From Escherichia phage vB_EcoP_PE007: DNA of 64,000 nt. The notes beneath the pieces were generated by a model that was not told the DNA's origin, made no database searches, and saw only the letters and a program-made list of their open reading frames with translations. Numbering within the stretch: position 1 is the stretch's first letter; each line of letters starts with the position of its first letter. A program made the translations under genes and the position numbers. The DNA lies in sequence record OQ938542.1, one strand, 5' to 3'. Shown piece by piece: positions 3,301-27,080 of this stretch.

Positions 3301-4476
3301 ATGAACCAATTTCCTCAGCACACACTTAGTGATGAACAACTCATGCGTGAGTATGACCGTATTCAGGCTCAAGCCTTCCTGGGTAAGTCTGCTGCGTTCT
3401 TTGGTTCATTGCTGTGTAGTCTTAAATTCTCATGGAAACGCGAGGATTGCCCCACTGCATGTACTGATGGGATAGAACTCCATTTCAACCCAGACTTCTT
3501 TATCTGGATGTGTCCAGATGCAAGAGAAACAGTATTAATGCACGAGTTATGGCATGTGGCATATCTACATGACATTCGTCGTGGAAGCCGTGACCCGGAA
3601 GTCTGGAACCAGGCTTGTGACCACTTCATTAACCTTCAGTTAGAAGAGGATGGTTACAAGTTCACTGGTATTGACAAAGGCATTTGCAAAGACCCTCAAT
3701 ATAAGGATTGGGTCGAAGAAGACATCTACGATGACCTGATGAAGAACCCTCAGAAAAGGCAGAAGCCGTCAGGGGGTGCTGGAGCAGGTCTTGCTGGCGA
3801 CATAAAATCCCCCACTTCGGGGCAGTCCCAGGGTGCTGTTGTCAACAACGTAGTTCGTGCAATGCAGAGCCAGAAAATGGCTGGTGGACAGATGCCTGGT
3901 AAGGGTGCTGGACGTATGGAAGAGGTTATTACCCAATTCCTTAAACCAGTGGTTCCTTGGCAGGAAGTTCTGATGAACTTCTTTACCGACATTGATGACA
4001 CTCACTATACGTGGGCCAGACCAAACCGTCGTTATACTGACACCTATCTACCTTCACTGGAAGATGATGAAGGACGCCTACGACACTTAGCTTATTTTGA
4101 GGATGTATCCGGTTCTATTAGTAGTGCTGACTCTCTGCGTTTTAACTCAGAGGTTGCCTACGTTAAGAGCCAGTTCAATCCTAAGAAGATGTCCCTAATT
4201 ACCTTCGACGATATTATCCAGGAAGAAATAGACATCACTGAAGAAGATACTTTCGAAGAAATTAAAATTACTGGTCGTGGTGGTACAAGCCTCGTGCCTG
4301 TACGAGATTGGATTATTAAGAATAAGCCAACCGCTGCAATCATATTCTCCGATATGTATGTTCGTCCAATGGAAGAATTGCCATTTGATATCCCTATCAT
4401 CTGGTGTGTTCTGAATAATCCCAATGCTACCGTACCTTTTGGGGAGGTAGTTCATATCCCTAAAGGAATGAAATAA
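3301..4476 (+). CDS. VWA-like domain protein with HExxH metallopeptidase-like N-domain (DUF2201-type)
   Basis: HELWH motif; C-terminal half resembles a VWA-like fold; immediately follows the MoxR ATPase as in bacterial MoxR-VWA pairs. Confidence 0.55.
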   Translation: MNQFPQHTLSDEQLMREYDRIQAQAFLGKSAAFFGSLLCSLKFSWKREDCPTACTDGIELHFNPDFFIWMCPDARETVLMHELWHVAYLHDIRRGSRDPEVWNQACDHFINLQLEEDGYKFTGIDKGICKDPQYKDWVEEDIYDDLMKNPQKRQKPSGGAGAGLAGDIKSPTSGQSQGAVVNNVVRAMQSQKMAGGQMPGKGAGRMEEVITQFLKPVVPWQEVLMNFFTDIDDTHYTWARPNRRYTDTYLPSLEDDEGRLRHLAYFEDVSGSISSADSLRFNSEVAYVKSQFNPKKMSLITFDDIIQEEIDITEEDTFEEIKITGRGGTSLVPVRDWIIKNKPTAAIIFSDMYVRPMEELPFDIPIIWCVLNNPNATVPFGEVVHIPKGMK

Positions 4477-7636: not shown

Positions 7637-7642
7637 ACCTAA

Positions 7643-7667
7643 GACCTCCTCCGGGAGGTCTTTTTTT
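7643..7667 (+). terminator. rho-independent terminator
   Basis: gacctcc-tccg-ggaggtc followed by T7. Confidence 0.75.
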
Positions 7668-8427: not shown

Positions 8428-10995
8428 ATGTTAGTTGCAGATACCAACGAAATAGCTACCTCAGCGACACTGGGTAGCAAAGAAACAATTGCCTTTGGCA
8501 TCTCTGATGACCCGGCATTCTTTCATGTATTAAGTACTTCCCTGTATAACAATCCTACTCTGGCAGTAGTCCGTGAGACTATCTGTAACAGTTGGGATGC
8601 TCATATTGAAGCAGGTAAGACTGATACCCCTATTCGTATCACTATTGATACAGACAACTTTATTACCTTCCGAGACTACGGTAACGGCATTCCAGATGAA
8701 CTCATTGGTTCCATTTATGGTGTCTATGGTGCATCTACTAAGAAGGCCAACAGTAGCGTTACTGGTGGCTTTGGCCTGGGATGTAAATCTCCATTCGCTT
8801 ATACAGATAGCTTCCAGGTTACTTCATGGAACCAGGGAAAGATGTCGGTATATAACGTAGCTAAGGCTGCGATTGAGAATGATGGTAAGCCCGGTATTGT
8901 TCCTATTGTTACTGGTATTCCTACTGAGGAATCTGGCCTGGAAGTTAAATTCCAGTTAGGCAAACATGACGTAAATACCTTCGTGCATTACATCACATCA
9001 ATCGTATTTAACGGTGAGATTAAAGCTGAGCTTAGTATCCCTAAACTAGTTAAAACAGAAGCAGGCAATAGTATTCAACAGGGTGATTACACTTTATTGA
9101 ATACGCTGGGTATGTCATTTGAACCTGGTTCATATGATATGTCTGATAGATGGTATCAAGGCTATATGGGTAGCAGTAACATATACGTTCGCTACGGTAA
9201 TGTAATGTACCCAATTGTATCCAGCCCAGCTAGTGAAGAAGCTGTAGACCTTATCCTCAACTTCATGAATATTATTGGTGCTTCTAATCTAGTAGTTCAG
9301 GCTGCACCAGACACTTTAGCTATTGCTCCTAGTCGTGAAACGCTGTCTAACCAGAAGTTAACCGACGATGGTATTACTACTCTATGTGTAGATTTAGTAG
9401 ACCGTATGGAGAAAGAGATTAAGGCTAAGATTCCTGAAGCTATTAAGCAAGTTGAAGAATATGCCTCTAAATCCTCTACTCGCTTTTGGGAATATCCATC
9501 TTTCCTACTTGCTGTTACAGACAGAACCGTCCAACGTTATATGTCCTCTAGCTTATGGGCTAAGCAACGTAAGCATCACATCAAACACTGGCGTAATCTA
9601 TCCAATAAGGCTTTGTTAGCTCGCCCTGAGTATGCAGGTCTTAAGAAACTGTATGGCAAGGCTATGTGTGCTCTTAAGGATACTCGTGAAGAAAGTACAT
9701 ACTCTCCGTTCCAGGAATTAGTATATCGCCATCTACACTTACCACAGCTTGCTGCTTTGAAAACCTCTGGTATTAAGTGGTCTGGTTACATAATGAACCA
9801 AGGTAATCGTGTTGACCTGGTGAAGGGTAGACTTACTGACTACTTTAAGATGTATCATAACTCCCATCAGGGTATTGGCATATTTACTACCAAGAACGTT
9901 GTAGTTACTCGCCGTTTATCTGATTGTGCAGACTCTTTTTCATACTTCCCTGAGTACAATCGAGGTGATCTGGAGCGTACAGCTTTTGTTCACGTCGTTG
10001 GTCCTAAGAAGGGTGCAGCAGAAGAAGCTGTAACTAAGTTCACTGCTATGGGTTATCGGGTAATTGACCTTACTCAATATAATGAGTGGGACAAACCAAC
10101 TAACTTCCGCAGAGAACAAGCTAAGATAGCTGCCGAGAAACGGGCTAAGACAATAGCTGCCAATAAAACCAAAGCAACTAGTAAAACCAATGCTCTGATT
10201 TCATTGAATGCAGTTCTTGGTGCTACCCAGGTGCGGAATAAAAATGGAGATTGGGAACCCAAGCCGTATATTCAGAAAGAATTTGCTGACCCAAGTCGCC
10301 ATGAAAAGTACGGTTTCGTTGAAGTAGAACAGCCTAAGTACTACGTACTAGCCAATCAGGTTGGTTCAGGTAACCCAGTAACTGCCAGTATTGGAACCAT
10401 GTGGAAATGGTATGAGTTATCCGATGAGATGAAAGCAGAGACTGTTGTCTGTCGTAATCAAATTGAAGCTAACAAGGCCAAACGACGTGGTGCTATCCAC
10501 ATTGATGATGTTCGCTTTAGTGAACTGATGTCTGTTATTACCAGTAAAGGATTCAAGAAATATGTTACTGAACATCGTATAGGTATTCTGGAATACGTAG
10601 GACTGGATGACAGAGAGTATTGGGAAATCCTAGACATACTGGGTCTAACCTTCAAACCATTACAGAATCTGATTTTTAAACCAGAATATGAATGGGCATA
10701 TGACTTTCTACGGAATCGACCACACGACAACAAAGAAAAACTTGTTGAAATGGGTTGTATTAAGTCAGTGGATGACTTAGAGCCATATGCAATAATGACT
10801 AATCCGCGTAATCATAAGTACTTTAAAATACTTAATGATTACAAAGAATTATTCAGTTATAGCTGGAATAAAAATGACATCCTACAGACGCTGGACTTAG
10901 GTAGTTTGGTCAAACACCTTAAGAAGAATCCAGAGGATATTCCTGGGTTTAAGTCCCTCTACCGTAATCGTCTAAATAAACTGAAAGGTAACTAA
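8428..10995 (+). CDS. rIIA: rIIA-like protein (GHKL ATPase domain)
   Basis: N-terminal GHKL boxes: RETICNSWDAH, DYGNGIP, GGFGLGCKSPFAYTDS; paired with a downstream large partner as in rIIA/rIIB. Confidence 0.6.
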   Translation: MLVADTNEIATSATLGSKETIAFGISDDPAFFHVLSTSLYNNPTLAVVRETICNSWDAHIEAGKTDTPIRITIDTDNFITFRDYGNGIPDELIGSIYGVYGASTKKANSSVTGGFGLGCKSPFAYTDSFQVTSWNQGKMSVYNVAKAAIENDGKPGIVPIVTGIPTEESGLEVKFQLGKHDVNTFVHYITSIVFNGEIKAELSIPKLVKTEAGNSIQQGDYTLLNTLGMSFEPGSYDMSDRWYQGYMGSSNIYVRYGNVMYPIVSSPASEEAVDLILNFMNIIGASNLVVQAAPDTLAIAPSRETLSNQKLTDDGITTLCVDLVDRMEKEIKAKIPEAIKQVEEYASKSSTRFWEYPSFLLAVTDRTVQRYMSSSLWAKQRKHHIKHWRNLSNKALLARPEYAGLKKLYGKAMCALKDTREESTYSPFQELVYRHLHLPQLAALKTSGIKWSGYIMNQGNRVDLVKGRLTDYFKMYHNSHQGIGIFTTKNVVVTRRLSDCADSFSYFPEYNRGDLERTAFVHVVGPKKGAAEEAVTKFTAMGYRVIDLTQYNEWDKPTNFRREQAKIAAEKRAKTIAANKTKATSKTNALISLNAVLGATQVRNKNGDWEPKPYIQKEFADPSRHEKYGFVEVEQPKYYVLANQVGSGNPVTASIGTMWKWYELSDEMKAETVVCRNQIEANKAKRRGAIHIDDVRFSELMSVITSKGFKKYVTEHRIGILEYVGLDDREYWEILDILGLTFKPLQNLIFKPEYEWAYDFLRNRPHDNKEKLVEMGCIKSVDDLEPYAIMTNPRNHKYFKILNDYKELFSYSWNKNDILQTLDLGSLVKHLKKNPEDIPGFKSLYRNRLNKLKGN

Positions 10996-10999
10996 TCTG

Positions 11000-13048
11000 A
11001 TGAAAATCGAACTGATTTCTATCATCGCACTGGCAGTTGACAGTCGTAACCTTACATTGTGGAAGCCTGATGGCTCCACGATTGTATATCCTCAGAGCGA
11101 CCCACGGGTTGCTCGTATTGTATCTGAAGCACAAACCAAGGGTCTGGGAACTACCAAAGACCAAATAGAAGTAAACATTGCACCGGAAGTAAACCTGCGT
11201 ACTGAATATCTGGAAGCAGAGAAGAACACTAACGGATTCGTCCGTTTCTTCAAGGTAGCCAAAGCTAAGCTTAAAGATTTCTTCCAAGATGGTACGGGTA
11301 CTCAACCTGACCGTATCATTTCTGATATTAAGCTAGGCAATCCAACCAAAACATTAGTGTCTAAAGCTATGGATACATTCCTGGCTGTACAAGCTAATGA
11401 ACCAGAAGTAACAGTATCTGACGGTTTCTACGACAGACGTGACAACCTAATGTGGGTTACTGGCTGGGATAAGGACCATAACCATCCTGCATTGGTTCGT
11501 TTTATTAACGATGTATTGTGTTGGGGCTATGCTCATACCGACCGTACTCTTGCACAGGAATGGCCTATTGCAATTCGTGCAGTATCCGATGATGAAATGT
11601 GTGAGTTTGCTAAACAAGCTAAACACATCAAAGGGGTACACATTGTATTCACCAGTCGTGATGTAACACCATTTCCTTACGTAGAAGTAGCTAAAACTAC
11701 GAACCAGGACAAACTGGCTGCTGCTTCTGAAAAGTTAGCTGCATTGGGAGCTATCAGTACCGATGATGCTAACTTCCACACTGAAGTGAAGGAGGATGAA
11801 GTGGTTGTTGCTGTTACCAACAATGGGGTTATCCCTGGAGTTGAGAACCTGCATCGTCACTTACGTCAGTCTGCCAAGCTGAAAGACTACAAGGGCTTTA
11901 CTAAGTTCCTTGAACGCCTGGCTCCGGTTATTAAAGACCGTCTGCACTCAGTAGAAGACCTGATGAAGTTCATGGAAACTGCTGAATTACCTATTGCCGA
12001 TGATGGTTCAATCCTGTTCCTTAAACGCCTTAAGTCTAGTGGTATAGAAAATGGTAAACGTGTATTCGTTGACTGTCACTCAGGTAACATTCGTCAATGG
12101 GTAGGCTGTAAAGTGCAGGTACGTGAAGACCTGGTAGACCCTGACCGTCGTCAGGATTGTTCTAACGGTCTGCACGTAGCATCCATGAGCTATCTACGTG
12201 GCTTCGGTGGTAACGTAACTATCCTTGGTAAAGTAGCACCGGAAGATGTATTTGCTGTTCCTGAGTACAGCACTAATAAGATGCGTGTATCTGCGTATCA
12301 CATTATTGCTGAACTACCGGAAGAGGAACGTAATAACGTTAACAATGGTATCTACCTGTCTAAGACAGAAGTAGGTAAGAAGTTGCTTAATGATGCCATC
12401 GTTGGGAACCATAGCTCACCTACCACACTTATTATGGTTGGGGGTCATTATGGTACTAACCTCAAATACACTAATCTCACATCTGGTTCTGTAGAACAAT
12501 TCCGTACAGTTGCTAGCAAAGAAGCACTGAACATGGAAGAGTCACTGAATGAAGCTGTAGCTGCTGAACCAGTGAAGGCTACTGACCTTAAACCTGTTAT
12601 TAAGAAGGCTCCTACTGTGAAAGAACAAATCCAGGAACTGGTCAAAGAGTTCCTTACTGCAACAACCCCAGAAGATAAGTTAGCTGCTGCTGACCTTCTG
12701 GTAGAACTGCGTGGTAAAGCTCGTAAGCCTTGGGCTGCATTCGATGTGGGTAATGATGTAGTAGCTAAGATTGCTGATGTACGTGCTACCTATACAGCTA
12801 AGCCTATTGGTAAACCTAAAGCTGTTAAGCAGGATAAGACAGTTAAACCTACTAAATCTAAGCCTGCTATTAATAGTACTAATGCCAACATCATCAGAGG
12901 TTATCTAGCAGATAGTGGTATGTCTGATTATCAGAAAGCCCACTCCATTCATGACCTGAAACGTGCAGCTAAGAAGTCTTATGCTGCTATGGGTCTTACT
13001 GAAGAAGAGTGCAAAGCCATTGATAAGCTGAAGCACCACCTTAAGTAA
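11000..13048 (+). CDS. rIIB: rIIB-like protein
   Basis: Large ORF immediately downstream of the rIIA-like gene; call is by synteny only. Confidence 0.4.
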   Translation: MKIELISIIALAVDSRNLTLWKPDGSTIVYPQSDPRVARIVSEAQTKGLGTTKDQIEVNIAPEVNLRTEYLEAEKNTNGFVRFFKVAKAKLKDFFQDGTGTQPDRIISDIKLGNPTKTLVSKAMDTFLAVQANEPEVTVSDGFYDRRDNLMWVTGWDKDHNHPALVRFINDVLCWGYAHTDRTLAQEWPIAIRAVSDDEMCEFAKQAKHIKGVHIVFTSRDVTPFPYVEVAKTTNQDKLAAASEKLAALGAISTDDANFHTEVKEDEVVVAVTNNGVIPGVENLHRHLRQSAKLKDYKGFTKFLERLAPVIKDRLHSVEDLMKFMETAELPIADDGSILFLKRLKSSGIENGKRVFVDCHSGNIRQWVGCKVQVREDLVDPDRRQDCSNGLHVASMSYLRGFGGNVTILGKVAPEDVFAVPEYSTNKMRVSAYHIIAELPEEERNNVNNGIYLSKTEVGKKLLNDAIVGNHSSPTTLIMVGGHYGTNLKYTNLTSGSVEQFRTVASKEALNMEESLNEAVAAEPVKATDLKPVIKKAPTVKEQIQELVKEFLTATTPEDKLAAADLLVELRGKARKPWAAFDVGNDVVAKIADVRATYTAKPIGKPKAVKQDKTVKPTKSKPAINSTNANIIRGYLADSGMSDYQKAHSIHDLKRAAKKSYAAMGLTEEECKAIDKLKHHLK

Positions 13049-13110: not shown

Positions 13111-13506
13111 ATGTCTAAAATATTCAGAAGTAATCGCAAAGCAACTGATGAAGACATCATTCGTATGAATGCTGTTGGTCTGTCCCTCGCAACTATCGCT
13201 AAGACGTTGGGGGTTCACCCCACTACGGTTACTTTGCGATTGCGTTCTCTAAACATTGAACCAGCCGACACACGTCGGACGTTCATGGAAAACGTATTAC
13301 GACCTTTACCAACCCATGTGGCTGATTGGCTGTCAGAACAAGTTGGTCCTGCTTATGAGATTCGCTCATATGTAAGAGACTTGATTCTGGAAGCGTATAA
13401 TAATCGCCACCTTAACCAAGAGAGTGAGCATGACAAGTTCATCCGTTTGTACGCTGGCAAATACGGAAGCCTGGTTCCGGAAAGCAGTACCAAATCCGAC
13501 AAGTAA
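13111..13506 (+). CDS. HTH DNA-binding protein
   Basis: N-terminal helix-turn-helix GLSLATIAKTLGVHPTTVTLRL. Confidence 0.5.
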   Translation: MSKIFRSNRKATDEDIIRMNAVGLSLATIAKTLGVHPTTVTLRLRSLNIEPADTRRTFMENVLRPLPTHVADWLSEQVGPAYEIRSYVRDLILEAYNNRHLNQESEHDKFIRLYAGKYGSLVPESSTKSDK

Positions 13507-13522
13507 GAACATTAGTACCCAG

Positions 13523-13885
13523 ATGGGTTGCCATCTGGAAGAAGTAGAAGAAATGCTTCAGACCATTTATCCAAATGGTAGTTACGATGCAGAATTACTG
13601 CAACGTGCACAGGATGCTCTTACAAACCTGGCAAACCATATGAAACGTAATGACGATGCTTATCGCATTGATGCTAGTACCAACCTGCTGGATGCACTGG
13701 CAGACCAGATTGTTACAGCAACTGGCGTCGGTACTTTCCTTGGGATGAATGTCCCTGGAGCATTGGCTGAAGTCAATCGCTCAAACTATTCTAAGTTTGA
13801 AGATGGTGAACCTGTCTTCAATGAGAATAAGAAAGTTATGAAAGGGAAAGACTACACTCCCCCGGATTTAAGCCCTTACATCTAA
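13523..13885 (+). CDS. MazG-like nucleotide pyrophosphohydrolase (putative)
   Basis: ATG at 13523 (track start 13424 overlaps the upstream gene); all-alpha NTP-PPase-like pattern EEVEEML ... LDALADQIV ... EVNRSNYSKF. Confidence 0.4.
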   Translation: MGCHLEEVEEMLQTIYPNGSYDAELLQRAQDALTNLANHMKRNDDAYRIDASTNLLDALADQIVTATGVGTFLGMNVPGALAEVNRSNYSKFEDGEPVFNENKKVMKGKDYTPPDLSPYI

Positions 13886-13905
13886 CCCTCTACGGAGGGT
13901 TTTTT
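13884..13905 (+). terminator. rho-independent terminator
   Basis: aaccctc-tacg-gagggtt followed by T-run. Confidence 0.7.
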
Positions 13906-26779: not shown

Positions 26780-26853
26780 GCCCACTTAGCTTAGACGGGG
26801 AAAGCAACCGACTAATAATCGGAAGGTCACTGGTTCAAATCCAGTAGTGGGTA
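26780..26853 (+). tRNA. tRNA (hand-folded anticodon AAU; identity uncertain)
   Basis: Acceptor gcccact/agtgggt (7 bp, one GU), D-arm gctt/aagc, anticodon arm accga-ctaataa-tcgga, 5-nt variable loop, T-arm actgg-TTCAAAT-ccagt, discriminator A; 74 nt. Confidence 0.65.
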
Positions 26854-27080
26854 CTTATTAATAGAGAACATAGTCCTGATTGCATTGCACTCTAAAGACA
26901 ATGCCGGTGAGACAGTCCGGCACTCTAATTATTGAAAACATACCTAACGGTGTGAGTATGAGCAGACTATAATGCTCAATTACAGTTAACTATTATCGGA
27001 CTATCAATCCTGTTTGCTGGTACAAGCACCGGTGGTAATAGTTAACTGGCCTAGCCTCGTTAGCTGCGTTAAAGCTACTA

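Follow-up and report, generated by a model that had tools for sequence, protein, structure and literature searches.

Few open questions in phage biology are older than the mode of action of the rII proteins, and the rII module is very widespread, its cores being present in over 2,600 sequenced phage records. T4 rIIA and rIIB are both reported to be membrane-associated without containing a transmembrane segment. The RIIB of phage T6 is toxic to E. coli and sets off CARD-gasdermin systems. CRISPRi-ART knock-down of RIIA or RIIB in the phages T4, MM02, EdH4, SUSP1, and N4 led to less plating only on E. coli with lambda RexAB (PMC11879866), and T4 transposon data concur with the RexAB-specific need for rII (10.1101/2025.11.20.689424). 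The Enquatrovirus rIIAB locus was noted in the BASEL paper (PMC8594841). In N4 the pair is encoded by gp33 (rIIA-like) and gp34 (rIIB-like), and the same genes, in the same order and with the same spacing, are present as orthologs in G7C, St11Ph5, ECBP1, Bp4, and PD38.

We analysed the pair in the window, i.e., the whole stretch of 64,000 nucleotides of Escherichia phage vB_EcoP_PE007 (OQ938542.1). The two genes are the rIIA/rIIB module of an N4-related Gamaleyavirus coliphage, quite probably with a role in counter-defence; they are orthologs of N4 gp33/gp34 and remote homologs of the T4 genes.

Locus and family identity

The earlier note on this DNA had proposed an 855-aa protein and a 682-aa partner as an rIIA/rIIB-like pair in a podophage. 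Both ORFs are listed exactly as it gave them, and terminator-like hairpins were found on both sides of the gene block:

8428..10995, + strand: rIIA-like gene, ORF of 855 aa with ATG start (96.7 kDa, pI 8.6)
11000..13048, + strand: rIIB-like gene, ORF of 682 aa with ATG start (75.6 kDa, pI 8.2)
7641..7662, + strand: terminator-like hairpin 5' of the gene block holding the pair, 9-bp stem with 5 GC pairs, then TTTTTGGTTT (consensus match only)
13884..13901, + strand: terminator-like hairpin 3' of the block, past the HTH-like and MazG-like genes, 7-bp stem, then TTTTACTGGA (consensus match only)

The gap between the two genes is 4 nt (TAA TCTG ATG), and GGAG is located 9 nt 5' of the rIIA ATG. 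ORFs this long, with homologs at E = 0, are far beyond chance origin. T4 rIIA and T4 rIIB gave one significant tblastn match each over the whole window, on the 855-aa and the 682-aa ORF, respectively.

The window is from a Gamaleyavirus (G7C-like, Schitoviridae), in agreement with the podophage assignment. The stretch with both genes has 94.4% DNA identity to the Escherichia phages PD38 and Bp4, whose records label them rIIA/rIIB, the relative St11Ph5 is classified as Schitoviridae; Enquatrovirinae; Gamaleyavirus, and a 3590-aa ORF in the window is of virion-RNA-polymerase size. The rIIA protein is 95% identical to the PD38 "rIIA lysis inhibitor" and rIIB is 85-94% identical to the rIIB-like proteins of G7C, SP5M, and E20. 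Nucleotide-metabolism genes (thymidylate synthase, dCTP deaminase) flank the pair on one side, and replication genes (Dda-like helicase, DNA polymerase) on the other.

The RIIA/RIIB profiles, BLASTP and hhalign alignments to T4, and the annotated relatives all agree on the rIIA/rIIB identity. The best HMM match of rIIA is phrog_2979 RIIA (E 1.9e-299), followed by the T4-type phrog_612 (E 2.9e-68, aa 12-390), and the best match of rIIB is phrog_2886 RIIB (E 1.8e-214), with the T4-type phrog_609 at E 7.3e-28. Relatives including G7C label the genes rIIA/rIIB-like, and also N4 gp33/gp34. The top profile matches are the RIIA and RIIB families rather than gyrase, Hsp90, or MutL, and the partner does have rIIB homology, so the outcome that the earlier note had set against its own reading did not occur. 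The rIIB homologs bear the precomputed Pfam domain PF26926.1; the Pfam and NCBIfam search gave no family for rIIB and none for the C-terminal half of rIIA. No solved structure was found by sequence for either protein, and the PADLOC defence-system models gave only a negligible GHKL match for rIIA (TmtA, E 0.0015) and nothing for rIIB.

A small HTH-like gene (13111-13506) with sub-threshold HTH matches follows rIIB, and in Schitoviridae rIIB is always trailed by a small HTH-like protein. An origin of this gene by fission of the T4 rIIB HTH is unsupported, the similarity being nil (E 1.1).

Architecture of the two proteins

The alignments and models divide the proteins into the following parts:

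8443..9480, + strand: rIIA part common to T4 rIIA (aa 6-351), GHKL ATP-binding domain at ~aa 20-196 and second transducer-like domain at ~aa 197-350
9481..10992, + strand: C-terminal half of rIIA (aa 352-855), specific to the lineage, confident model with helical and alpha/beta parts mixed
11000..11290, + strand: beta-rich N-terminal domain of rIIB (aa 1-97) seen in alignments, kept in Schitoviridae rIIB, pLDDT 66-93
11297..11704, + strand: rIIB insertion (aa ~100-235), in E. coli N4/G7C-type phages (Enquatrovirinae) only, pLDDT 30-50
11855..12337, + strand: rIIB core common to T4 rIIB (aa 286-446), three helices, then a beta-rich domain
12608..12775, + strand: rIIB C-terminal repeat 1 (aa 537-592), helical module with motif KKxAKxSWxxLG, helices H540-599
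12872..13024, + strand: rIIB C-terminal repeat 2 (aa 625-675), homolog of repeat 1, helices H628-681, pLDDT 93-95

The homology to T4 is partial: it extends over the first ~40% of rIIA and, in rIIB, over a core of ~155 aa. The rIIA region aa 6-351 aligns with T4 rIIA (725 aa) at 29% identity (BLASTP E 1e-27; hhalign 99.7%), and the GHKL plus second-domain module has all motifs in common with T4, including GGFGLGxKSPF and APSRE. Past aa ~351 no alignment with T4 rIIA was obtained by BLASTP, PHROG, or hhalign. The rIIA-family membership stands without full-length collinearity, since the published family description expects a variable C-terminus (PMC7824862). The C-terminal half (aa 352-855) has no recognisable relative.

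The GHKL N-domain claimed in the earlier note was recovered by Pfam HATPase_c_3 at aa 47-155 (E 3.7e-9, 37.2 bits vs the cut-off of 25), and the Bergerat motifs E50/N54/D57, D83-x-G85-x-G87, and G113-G114-F-G116-L-G118 are invariant in 59 homologs. Structurally, the N-terminal module groups with the dimerising Hsp90/topo II/MutL/MORC ATPases, with every ATP-binding motif kept; Hsp90 is the top structural match. These GHL/MORC-class relatives (Hsp90/TRAP1/GRP94, topoisomerase II/GyrB/ParE, MutL, MORC, SMCHD1) are only 13-17% identical to the module, and unlike them rIIA has no Toprim, MutL endonuclease, CW/zinc-finger, or Hsp90 C-terminal dimerisation domain, while its C-terminal half is without counterpart in the class. 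The N-terminal arm (aa 1-17), conserved yet disordered, is a candidate for the strap of GHL ATPases, and the invariant R303/E304 loop for their catalytic-loop residue; R303 may correspond to the catalytic-loop residue of Hsp90/GyrB/MutL, judging from position and invariance rather than superposition. No transmembrane segment was found in rIIA or rIIB (maximum Kyte-Doolittle 19-residue means 1.61 and 1.20, respectively).

The rIIB protein consists of a strongly conserved ~160-aa core between lineage-specific modules and is more than twice as long as T4 rIIB (312 aa). Its aa 286-442 align with T4 rIIB 161-310 at 30% identity (BLASTP E 3e-18; hhalign 99.2%), with the CSxGLHV and KMR motifs in common. 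The core residues D358, C387-S-x-G-L-H392, D416, K427, R429, and Y433 are invariant from T4 to N4-like phages, and no solved structure related to the core was detected. In T4 rIIB the core is C-terminal, after an HTH-like N-terminus, whereas here it is central, preceded by the beta-rich N-domain and the insertion and followed by the two helical repeats. The N-domain (aa 1-97) is absent from T4 rIIB and has no Pfam match. T4 rIIB aa 7-50 gave sub-threshold Pfam HTH_7/HTH_28/HTH_23 matches (best E 5.6e-5) and matched phrog_867 "DNA binding domain", whereas Pfam searches detected no HTH in rIIB here, whose N-terminus is modelled as beta-rich; the N-terminal HTH-like segment is a feature of the T4 lineage rather than of the rIIB family in general.

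Among 128 Schitoviridae-type rIIB proteins, the column occupancy of the insertion is 0.08-0.31 at aa 121-220; the insertion is present in the Enquatrovirus phage BEU44 and missing in Stenotrophomonas and Vibrio phages. A weak BLASTP match of rIIB aa 112-144 to T4 183-212 (E 0.025) gave rise to the idea of a degenerate core copy, which was rejected when aa 100-260 vs aa 265-450 gave E 1.9. The two C-terminal repeats are homologous (hhalign of aa 535-600 vs aa 622-682, probability 97.8%, E 1e-12), K654, K658, K659, W661, L664, and G665 are near-invariant in repeat 2, and the final ~200 nt of rIIB (the linker ahead of repeat 2) are more variable across relatives.

Proposed function and alternative roles

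The earlier note had called the rII function poorly defined, which is partly outdated, since N4 rIIA/rIIB were shown to be specifically needed on RexAB-expressing hosts (PMC11879866). By analogy, the function of the pair here is likely counter-defence against Rex-like abortive infection. The anti-RexAB function is common to N4 and T4. Because the N4 proteins are just 39% and 49% identical, we infer the anti-Rex role only through the N4 knock-downs, and the specificity may differ from T4, since the T4-common parts are under half of each protein.

We propose that rIIA and rIIB would be made together, in early or mid infection, and would work as one ATP-driven machine with rIIA as a nucleotide-gated clamp or switch and rIIB as its partner or effector. 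The pair would prevent the RexAB-triggered membrane depolarisation, would permit phage growth on lysogens with Rex-like abortive-infection systems, and would be dispensable where the host is without them.

An unlikely alternative is a DNA-metabolism machine, in which a GHL ATPase and a DNA-binding partner organise or anchor the replicating phage DNA and the anti-Rex effect is indirect, for instance by masking the DNA-protein intermediates that set off RexA. The flanking nucleotide-metabolism and replication genes, the action on DNA or chromatin of most proteins structurally related to the ATPase module (topo II, MutL, MORC, and SMCHD1), the HTH-like segment of T4 rIIB (sub-threshold, as given above), the treatment of rIIB as a transcription factor by Iyer et al. 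(PMC7824862), and the small HTH-like protein constantly following rIIB in Schitoviridae are consistent with such a role. However, in five phages, N4 among them, the rIIA/rIIB knock-downs caused no loss of infection on hosts free of Rex (PMC11879866), no HTH was detected in rIIB here, the top structural match is Hsp90 and not a DNA enzyme, and DNA binding by the C-terminal repeats would be a guess from their motif.

It is rather doubtful that the invariant cluster of the rIIB core is an enzymatic or ligand-binding site and the core no mere passive scaffold, that rIIA regulates rIIB as an Hsp90/MORC-like ATP-gated clamp, and that Rex-type defences are neutralised chemically. If so, the duplicated KKxAKxSWxxLG modules specific to Schitoviridae and the insertion confined to Enquatrovirinae would set targeting or specificity.

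It is very improbable that the proteins are true lysis inhibitors, delaying holin-triggered lysis and so helping to keep the latent period of N4-like phages long. The "RIIA/RIIB lysis inhibitor" product names in RefSeq records and PHROGs and the historical T4 r phenotype of rapid lysis suggest it, but the name was carried over from the plaque phenotype that T4 shows on particular lysogens, and the T4 record itself ascribes the phenotype to effects of specific prophages. Furthermore, the knock-downs had no phenotype when RexAB was absent (PMC11879866), the pair is in the replication-gene block, away from the lysis genes, and neither protein has a membrane segment.

The identity of the 855-aa protein as some other GHKL enzyme (topoisomerase/MutL-like ATPase, chaperone, or histidine kinase) with an unrelated neighbour, suggested by generic matches to topo VI-B, sacsin, the BbrUII restriction enzyme, and DevS and by the "histidine kinase" label on homologs in some records, has a negligible probability and was refuted for histidine kinase, topoisomerase, MutL, and Hsp90: the topo VI-B, sacsin, and histidine-kinase matches are at E >= 1e-5, far under the cut-offs (23 bits vs 381 for topo VI-B), against E 1e-299 and 3e-68 for the RIIA profiles, the searched Toprim, MutL C-terminal, Hsp90 C-terminal, and DHp domains were not found, and the neighbour is clearly an rIIB homolog.

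Relation to known rII systems

Abutting rIIA and then rIIB genes are also found in St11Ph5, Stenotrophomonas phage Piffle, a Vibrio phage, and Streptomyces phage Larnav, and this adjacency spans phages of proteobacteria and actinobacteria. The two cores occur in 2606 and 2820 phage records with a similar spread. At 50% identity, the protein clusters matched by the rIIB core number more than 6,000. The length of phrog_609 (1055 positions) hints at natural rIIA-rIIB fusions; none is visible among the top 150 rIIB-core representatives, and the Larnav genes abut but are separate.

The modest by-products of the analysis are the description of the rIIA common part as a two-domain GHL/MORC-class ATPase module with fully intact active-site motifs, the rIIB core without a solved structural relative, and an N4-like rIIB architecture that differs from T4 in lacking an HTH, in having the C-terminal helical module in duplicate, and in carrying a lineage-specific insertion. 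Mutagenesis now has concrete residues and domain boundaries to target, in a podophage that is small and amenable to genetics.

In T4 the genes are likewise adjacent, rIIA before rIIB, and lie at opposite ends of the linear record. N4/G7C-like phages carry the pair at the same site as here, between the thymidylate synthase gene and the Dda-like helicase/DNA polymerase genes. The proteins are full-length collinear with those of Enquatrovirus (N4) at 39% identity for rIIA and 49% for rIIB, and with Gamaleyavirus proteins at 85-96% identity. The pair is already known, a correct but ordinary finding, since the annotations of dozens of sequenced relatives include it and the N4 pair was shown to overcome lambda RexAB; as an ortholog to be expected in a phage genus that is well sampled, this copy adds no new kind. 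Compared with the G7C-like orthologs, nothing is different in kind, and the pair is a slightly diverged allele with 94% DNA identity to the nearest records.

Identity and lineage of the gene pair

The two proteins encoded at 8428-13048, which the earlier note had called an rIIA/rIIB-like pair, are almost certainly rIIA and rIIB. PHROG profile comparison assigned the 855-aa protein to RIIA phrog_2979 (1.9e-299) and, over aa 12-390, to T4-type RIIA phrog_612 (2.9e-68); the 682-aa protein matched RIIB phrog_2886 (1.8e-214) and, over aa 286-446, T4-type RIIB phrog_609 (7.3e-28). BLASTP aligned T4 rIIA with rIIA aa 6-351 (29% identity, E 1e-27) and T4 rIIB aa 161-310 with rIIB aa 286-442 (30% identity, E 3e-18). 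Profile-profile comparison with the T4 proteins recovered the same regions (probability 99.7% for rIIA, 99.2% for rIIB) and nothing outside them, and each T4 protein has just one significant match within the window. The only domain found by Pfam was GHKL (HATPase_c_3, rIIA aa 47-155, above threshold), confirming the N-domain proposed earlier, and NCBIfam and PDB sequence searches gave only weak generic GHKL matches far under family cut-offs. Gyrase, Hsp90 and MutL families were not the best matches of rIIA, and the partner does have rIIB homology.

The rIIB gene directly follows rIIA in the window, in St11Ph5, in Stenotrophomonas phage Piffle, where the annotation refers to N4 gp33/gp34, in a Schitoviridae phage of Vibrio and in Streptomyces phage Larnav. 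Phage records with the rIIA core (2606) and the rIIB core (2820) are similar in number. The rIIB core is very common, also matching 6279 protein clusters (50% identity) with E <= 1e-3. In phrog_609 ('RIIB', 1055 positions) rIIA N-termini match ~18-310 and rIIB cores ~750-1050, a profile layout suggesting a fused rIIA-N/rIIB protein in some phages; this was checked on the Larnav locus (L007 1790-4666), where rIIA and rIIB abut, yet are separate genes.

The 4.6-kb stretch with the pair matches Escherichia phages PD38 and Bp4 at 94.4% identity and about 55 further records at 80-94%, and almost all of these records carry the rIIA/rIIB annotation on these genes; the gene pair is already known, and its phage genus is heavily sampled. 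The St11Ph5 (Schitoviridae; Enquatrovirinae; Gamaleyavirus) counterparts are gp33 and gp34, with thymidylate synthase and small ORFs to one side of them and genes for a Dda-like helicase and a DNA polymerase to the other. These relatives, the St11Ph5 taxonomy, the gene order and a 3590-aa ORF of virion-RNA-polymerase size in the window therefore uphold the description as an N4-like podophage.

Elsewhere in the window, a tRNA gene at 26780-26854 (+) was called tRNA-Ile, anticodon AAT, by ARAGORN (Rfam tRNA, 64.8 bits). Bp4, ECBP1 and PD38 carry the identical sequence, labelled tRNA-Ile or tRNA-Xle or left without annotation. Ile anticodons with A34 are uncommon in bacteria and in phages that infect them. 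The 391-aa ORF 3301-4476 (+) corresponds by position to St11Ph5 gp25 'HNH endonuclease', between ATPase and dCTP deaminase genes.

Organization of the gene block

The two ORFs were placed correctly in the earlier note.

7641-7662, terminator-like hairpin upstream of the block (consensus match only)
8428-10995 (+), rIIA, 855 aa
11000-13048 (+), rIIB, 682 aa
13111-13506 (+), 131-aa protein (phrog_6377), directly 3' of rIIB
13523-13885, MazG-like NTP pyrophosphohydrolase
13884-13901, terminator-like hairpin downstream of the block (consensus match only)

The hairpins enclose small genes, rIIA/rIIB, the HTH-like gene and the MazG-like gene. GGAG lies nine bases 5' of the rIIA ATG, and four bases separate rIIA from rIIB. 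The 131-aa protein has sub-threshold HTH matches at aa 16-44 and is kept in 159 Schitoviridae records; in three loci inspected and several annotated matches its gene lies between rIIB and the MazG-like gene or adjoins the latter, and it may be functionally associated with the rII pair. T4 rIIB starts with an HTH-like segment, whereas none is detectable in the window's rIIB, and the 131-aa protein has no similarity to the T4 HTH.

Domain architecture

In an alignment of 59 rIIA homologs (30-95% identity), motif I (E50, N54, D57), motif II (D83-x-G85-x-G87), the lid (G113-G114-F-G116-L-G118 and K120) and R303-E304 of the second domain are invariant. From these motifs and the AlphaFold2 model built on the same alignment (mean pLDDT 82.6), the T4-shared part is therefore a two-domain GHL/MORC-class module, ATP-binding plus transducer-like. 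Model confidence within this module is low only for the N-terminal 17 residues, which are highly conserved, and loop 298-311, which carries R303/E304; by inference, these are candidates for the exchange arm and the catalytic loop, elements that become ordered when ATPases of this kind dimerise. Full-length rIIA similarity is confined, among phage records, to N4-like coliphages (39% identity in Enquatrovirus phage AlfredRasser), whereas in other Schitoviridae the similarity is limited to aa 1-320. No transmembrane-like segment is present in either rIIA or rIIB.

For rIIB (predicted model, mean pLDDT 74.7), we used alignments covering the proteins of T4 and of N4-type, Stenotrophomonas and Vibrio phages, as well as 128 Schitoviridae-type homologs.

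aa 1-97, beta-rich N-domain, common to Schitoviridae
aa ~100-235 (11297-11704, +), ~135-aa insertion, E. coli N4/G7C lineage only
aa 240-495, core; residues 286-446 common to T4
aa 537-592 (12608-12775, +), C-terminal helical module 1, motif KKxAKxSWxxLG
aa 625-675 (12872-13024, +), C-terminal helical module 2, same motif

D358, C387, S388, G390, L391, H392, P414, D416, K427, R429 and Y433 of the core are invariant in both alignments. The insertion, whose column occupancy drops to 0.08-0.16 at the centre and whose pLDDT is 30-50, shows no homology to other proteins that could be detected; it may be a module that sets specificity for a host or a defence system. The two small helical modules of Schitoviridae rIIB are mutually homologous (hhalign 97.8%, E 1e-12), and their motif presumably resembles helix-extended-helix (SAP/Rho_N-like) nucleic-acid-binding motifs. 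These details are of use for experiments and leave the nature of the pair unchanged.

Possible function and comparison with known rII systems

Of the published work, a CRISPRi-ART study comes nearest to this locus: RIIA or RIIB knock-down in T4, MM02, EdH4, SUSP1 and N4 lowered plating on lambda RexAB-expressing cells, with no effect on Rex-free E. coli (PMC11879866); T4 transposon data agree (10.1101/2025.11.20.689424). The favoured reading, by analogy with N4 (39-49% identity), is that rIIA and rIIB would together counter Rex-like abortive infection as a two-protein module driven by ATP. In the main rival reading the pair works on DNA under replication, and Rex is overcome only as an indirect consequence. 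The surrounding genes and the DNA-related relatives of the rIIA ATPase speak for this rival; the lack of a phenotype on defence-free hosts argues against it. 'Lysis inhibitor', the name used in databases, goes back to history rather than to a tested activity. In E. coli, T6 RIIB is toxic on its own and sets off a CARD-gasdermin defence system. The rIIAB locus of Enquatrovirus phages was pointed out earlier in the BASEL paper (PMC8594841).
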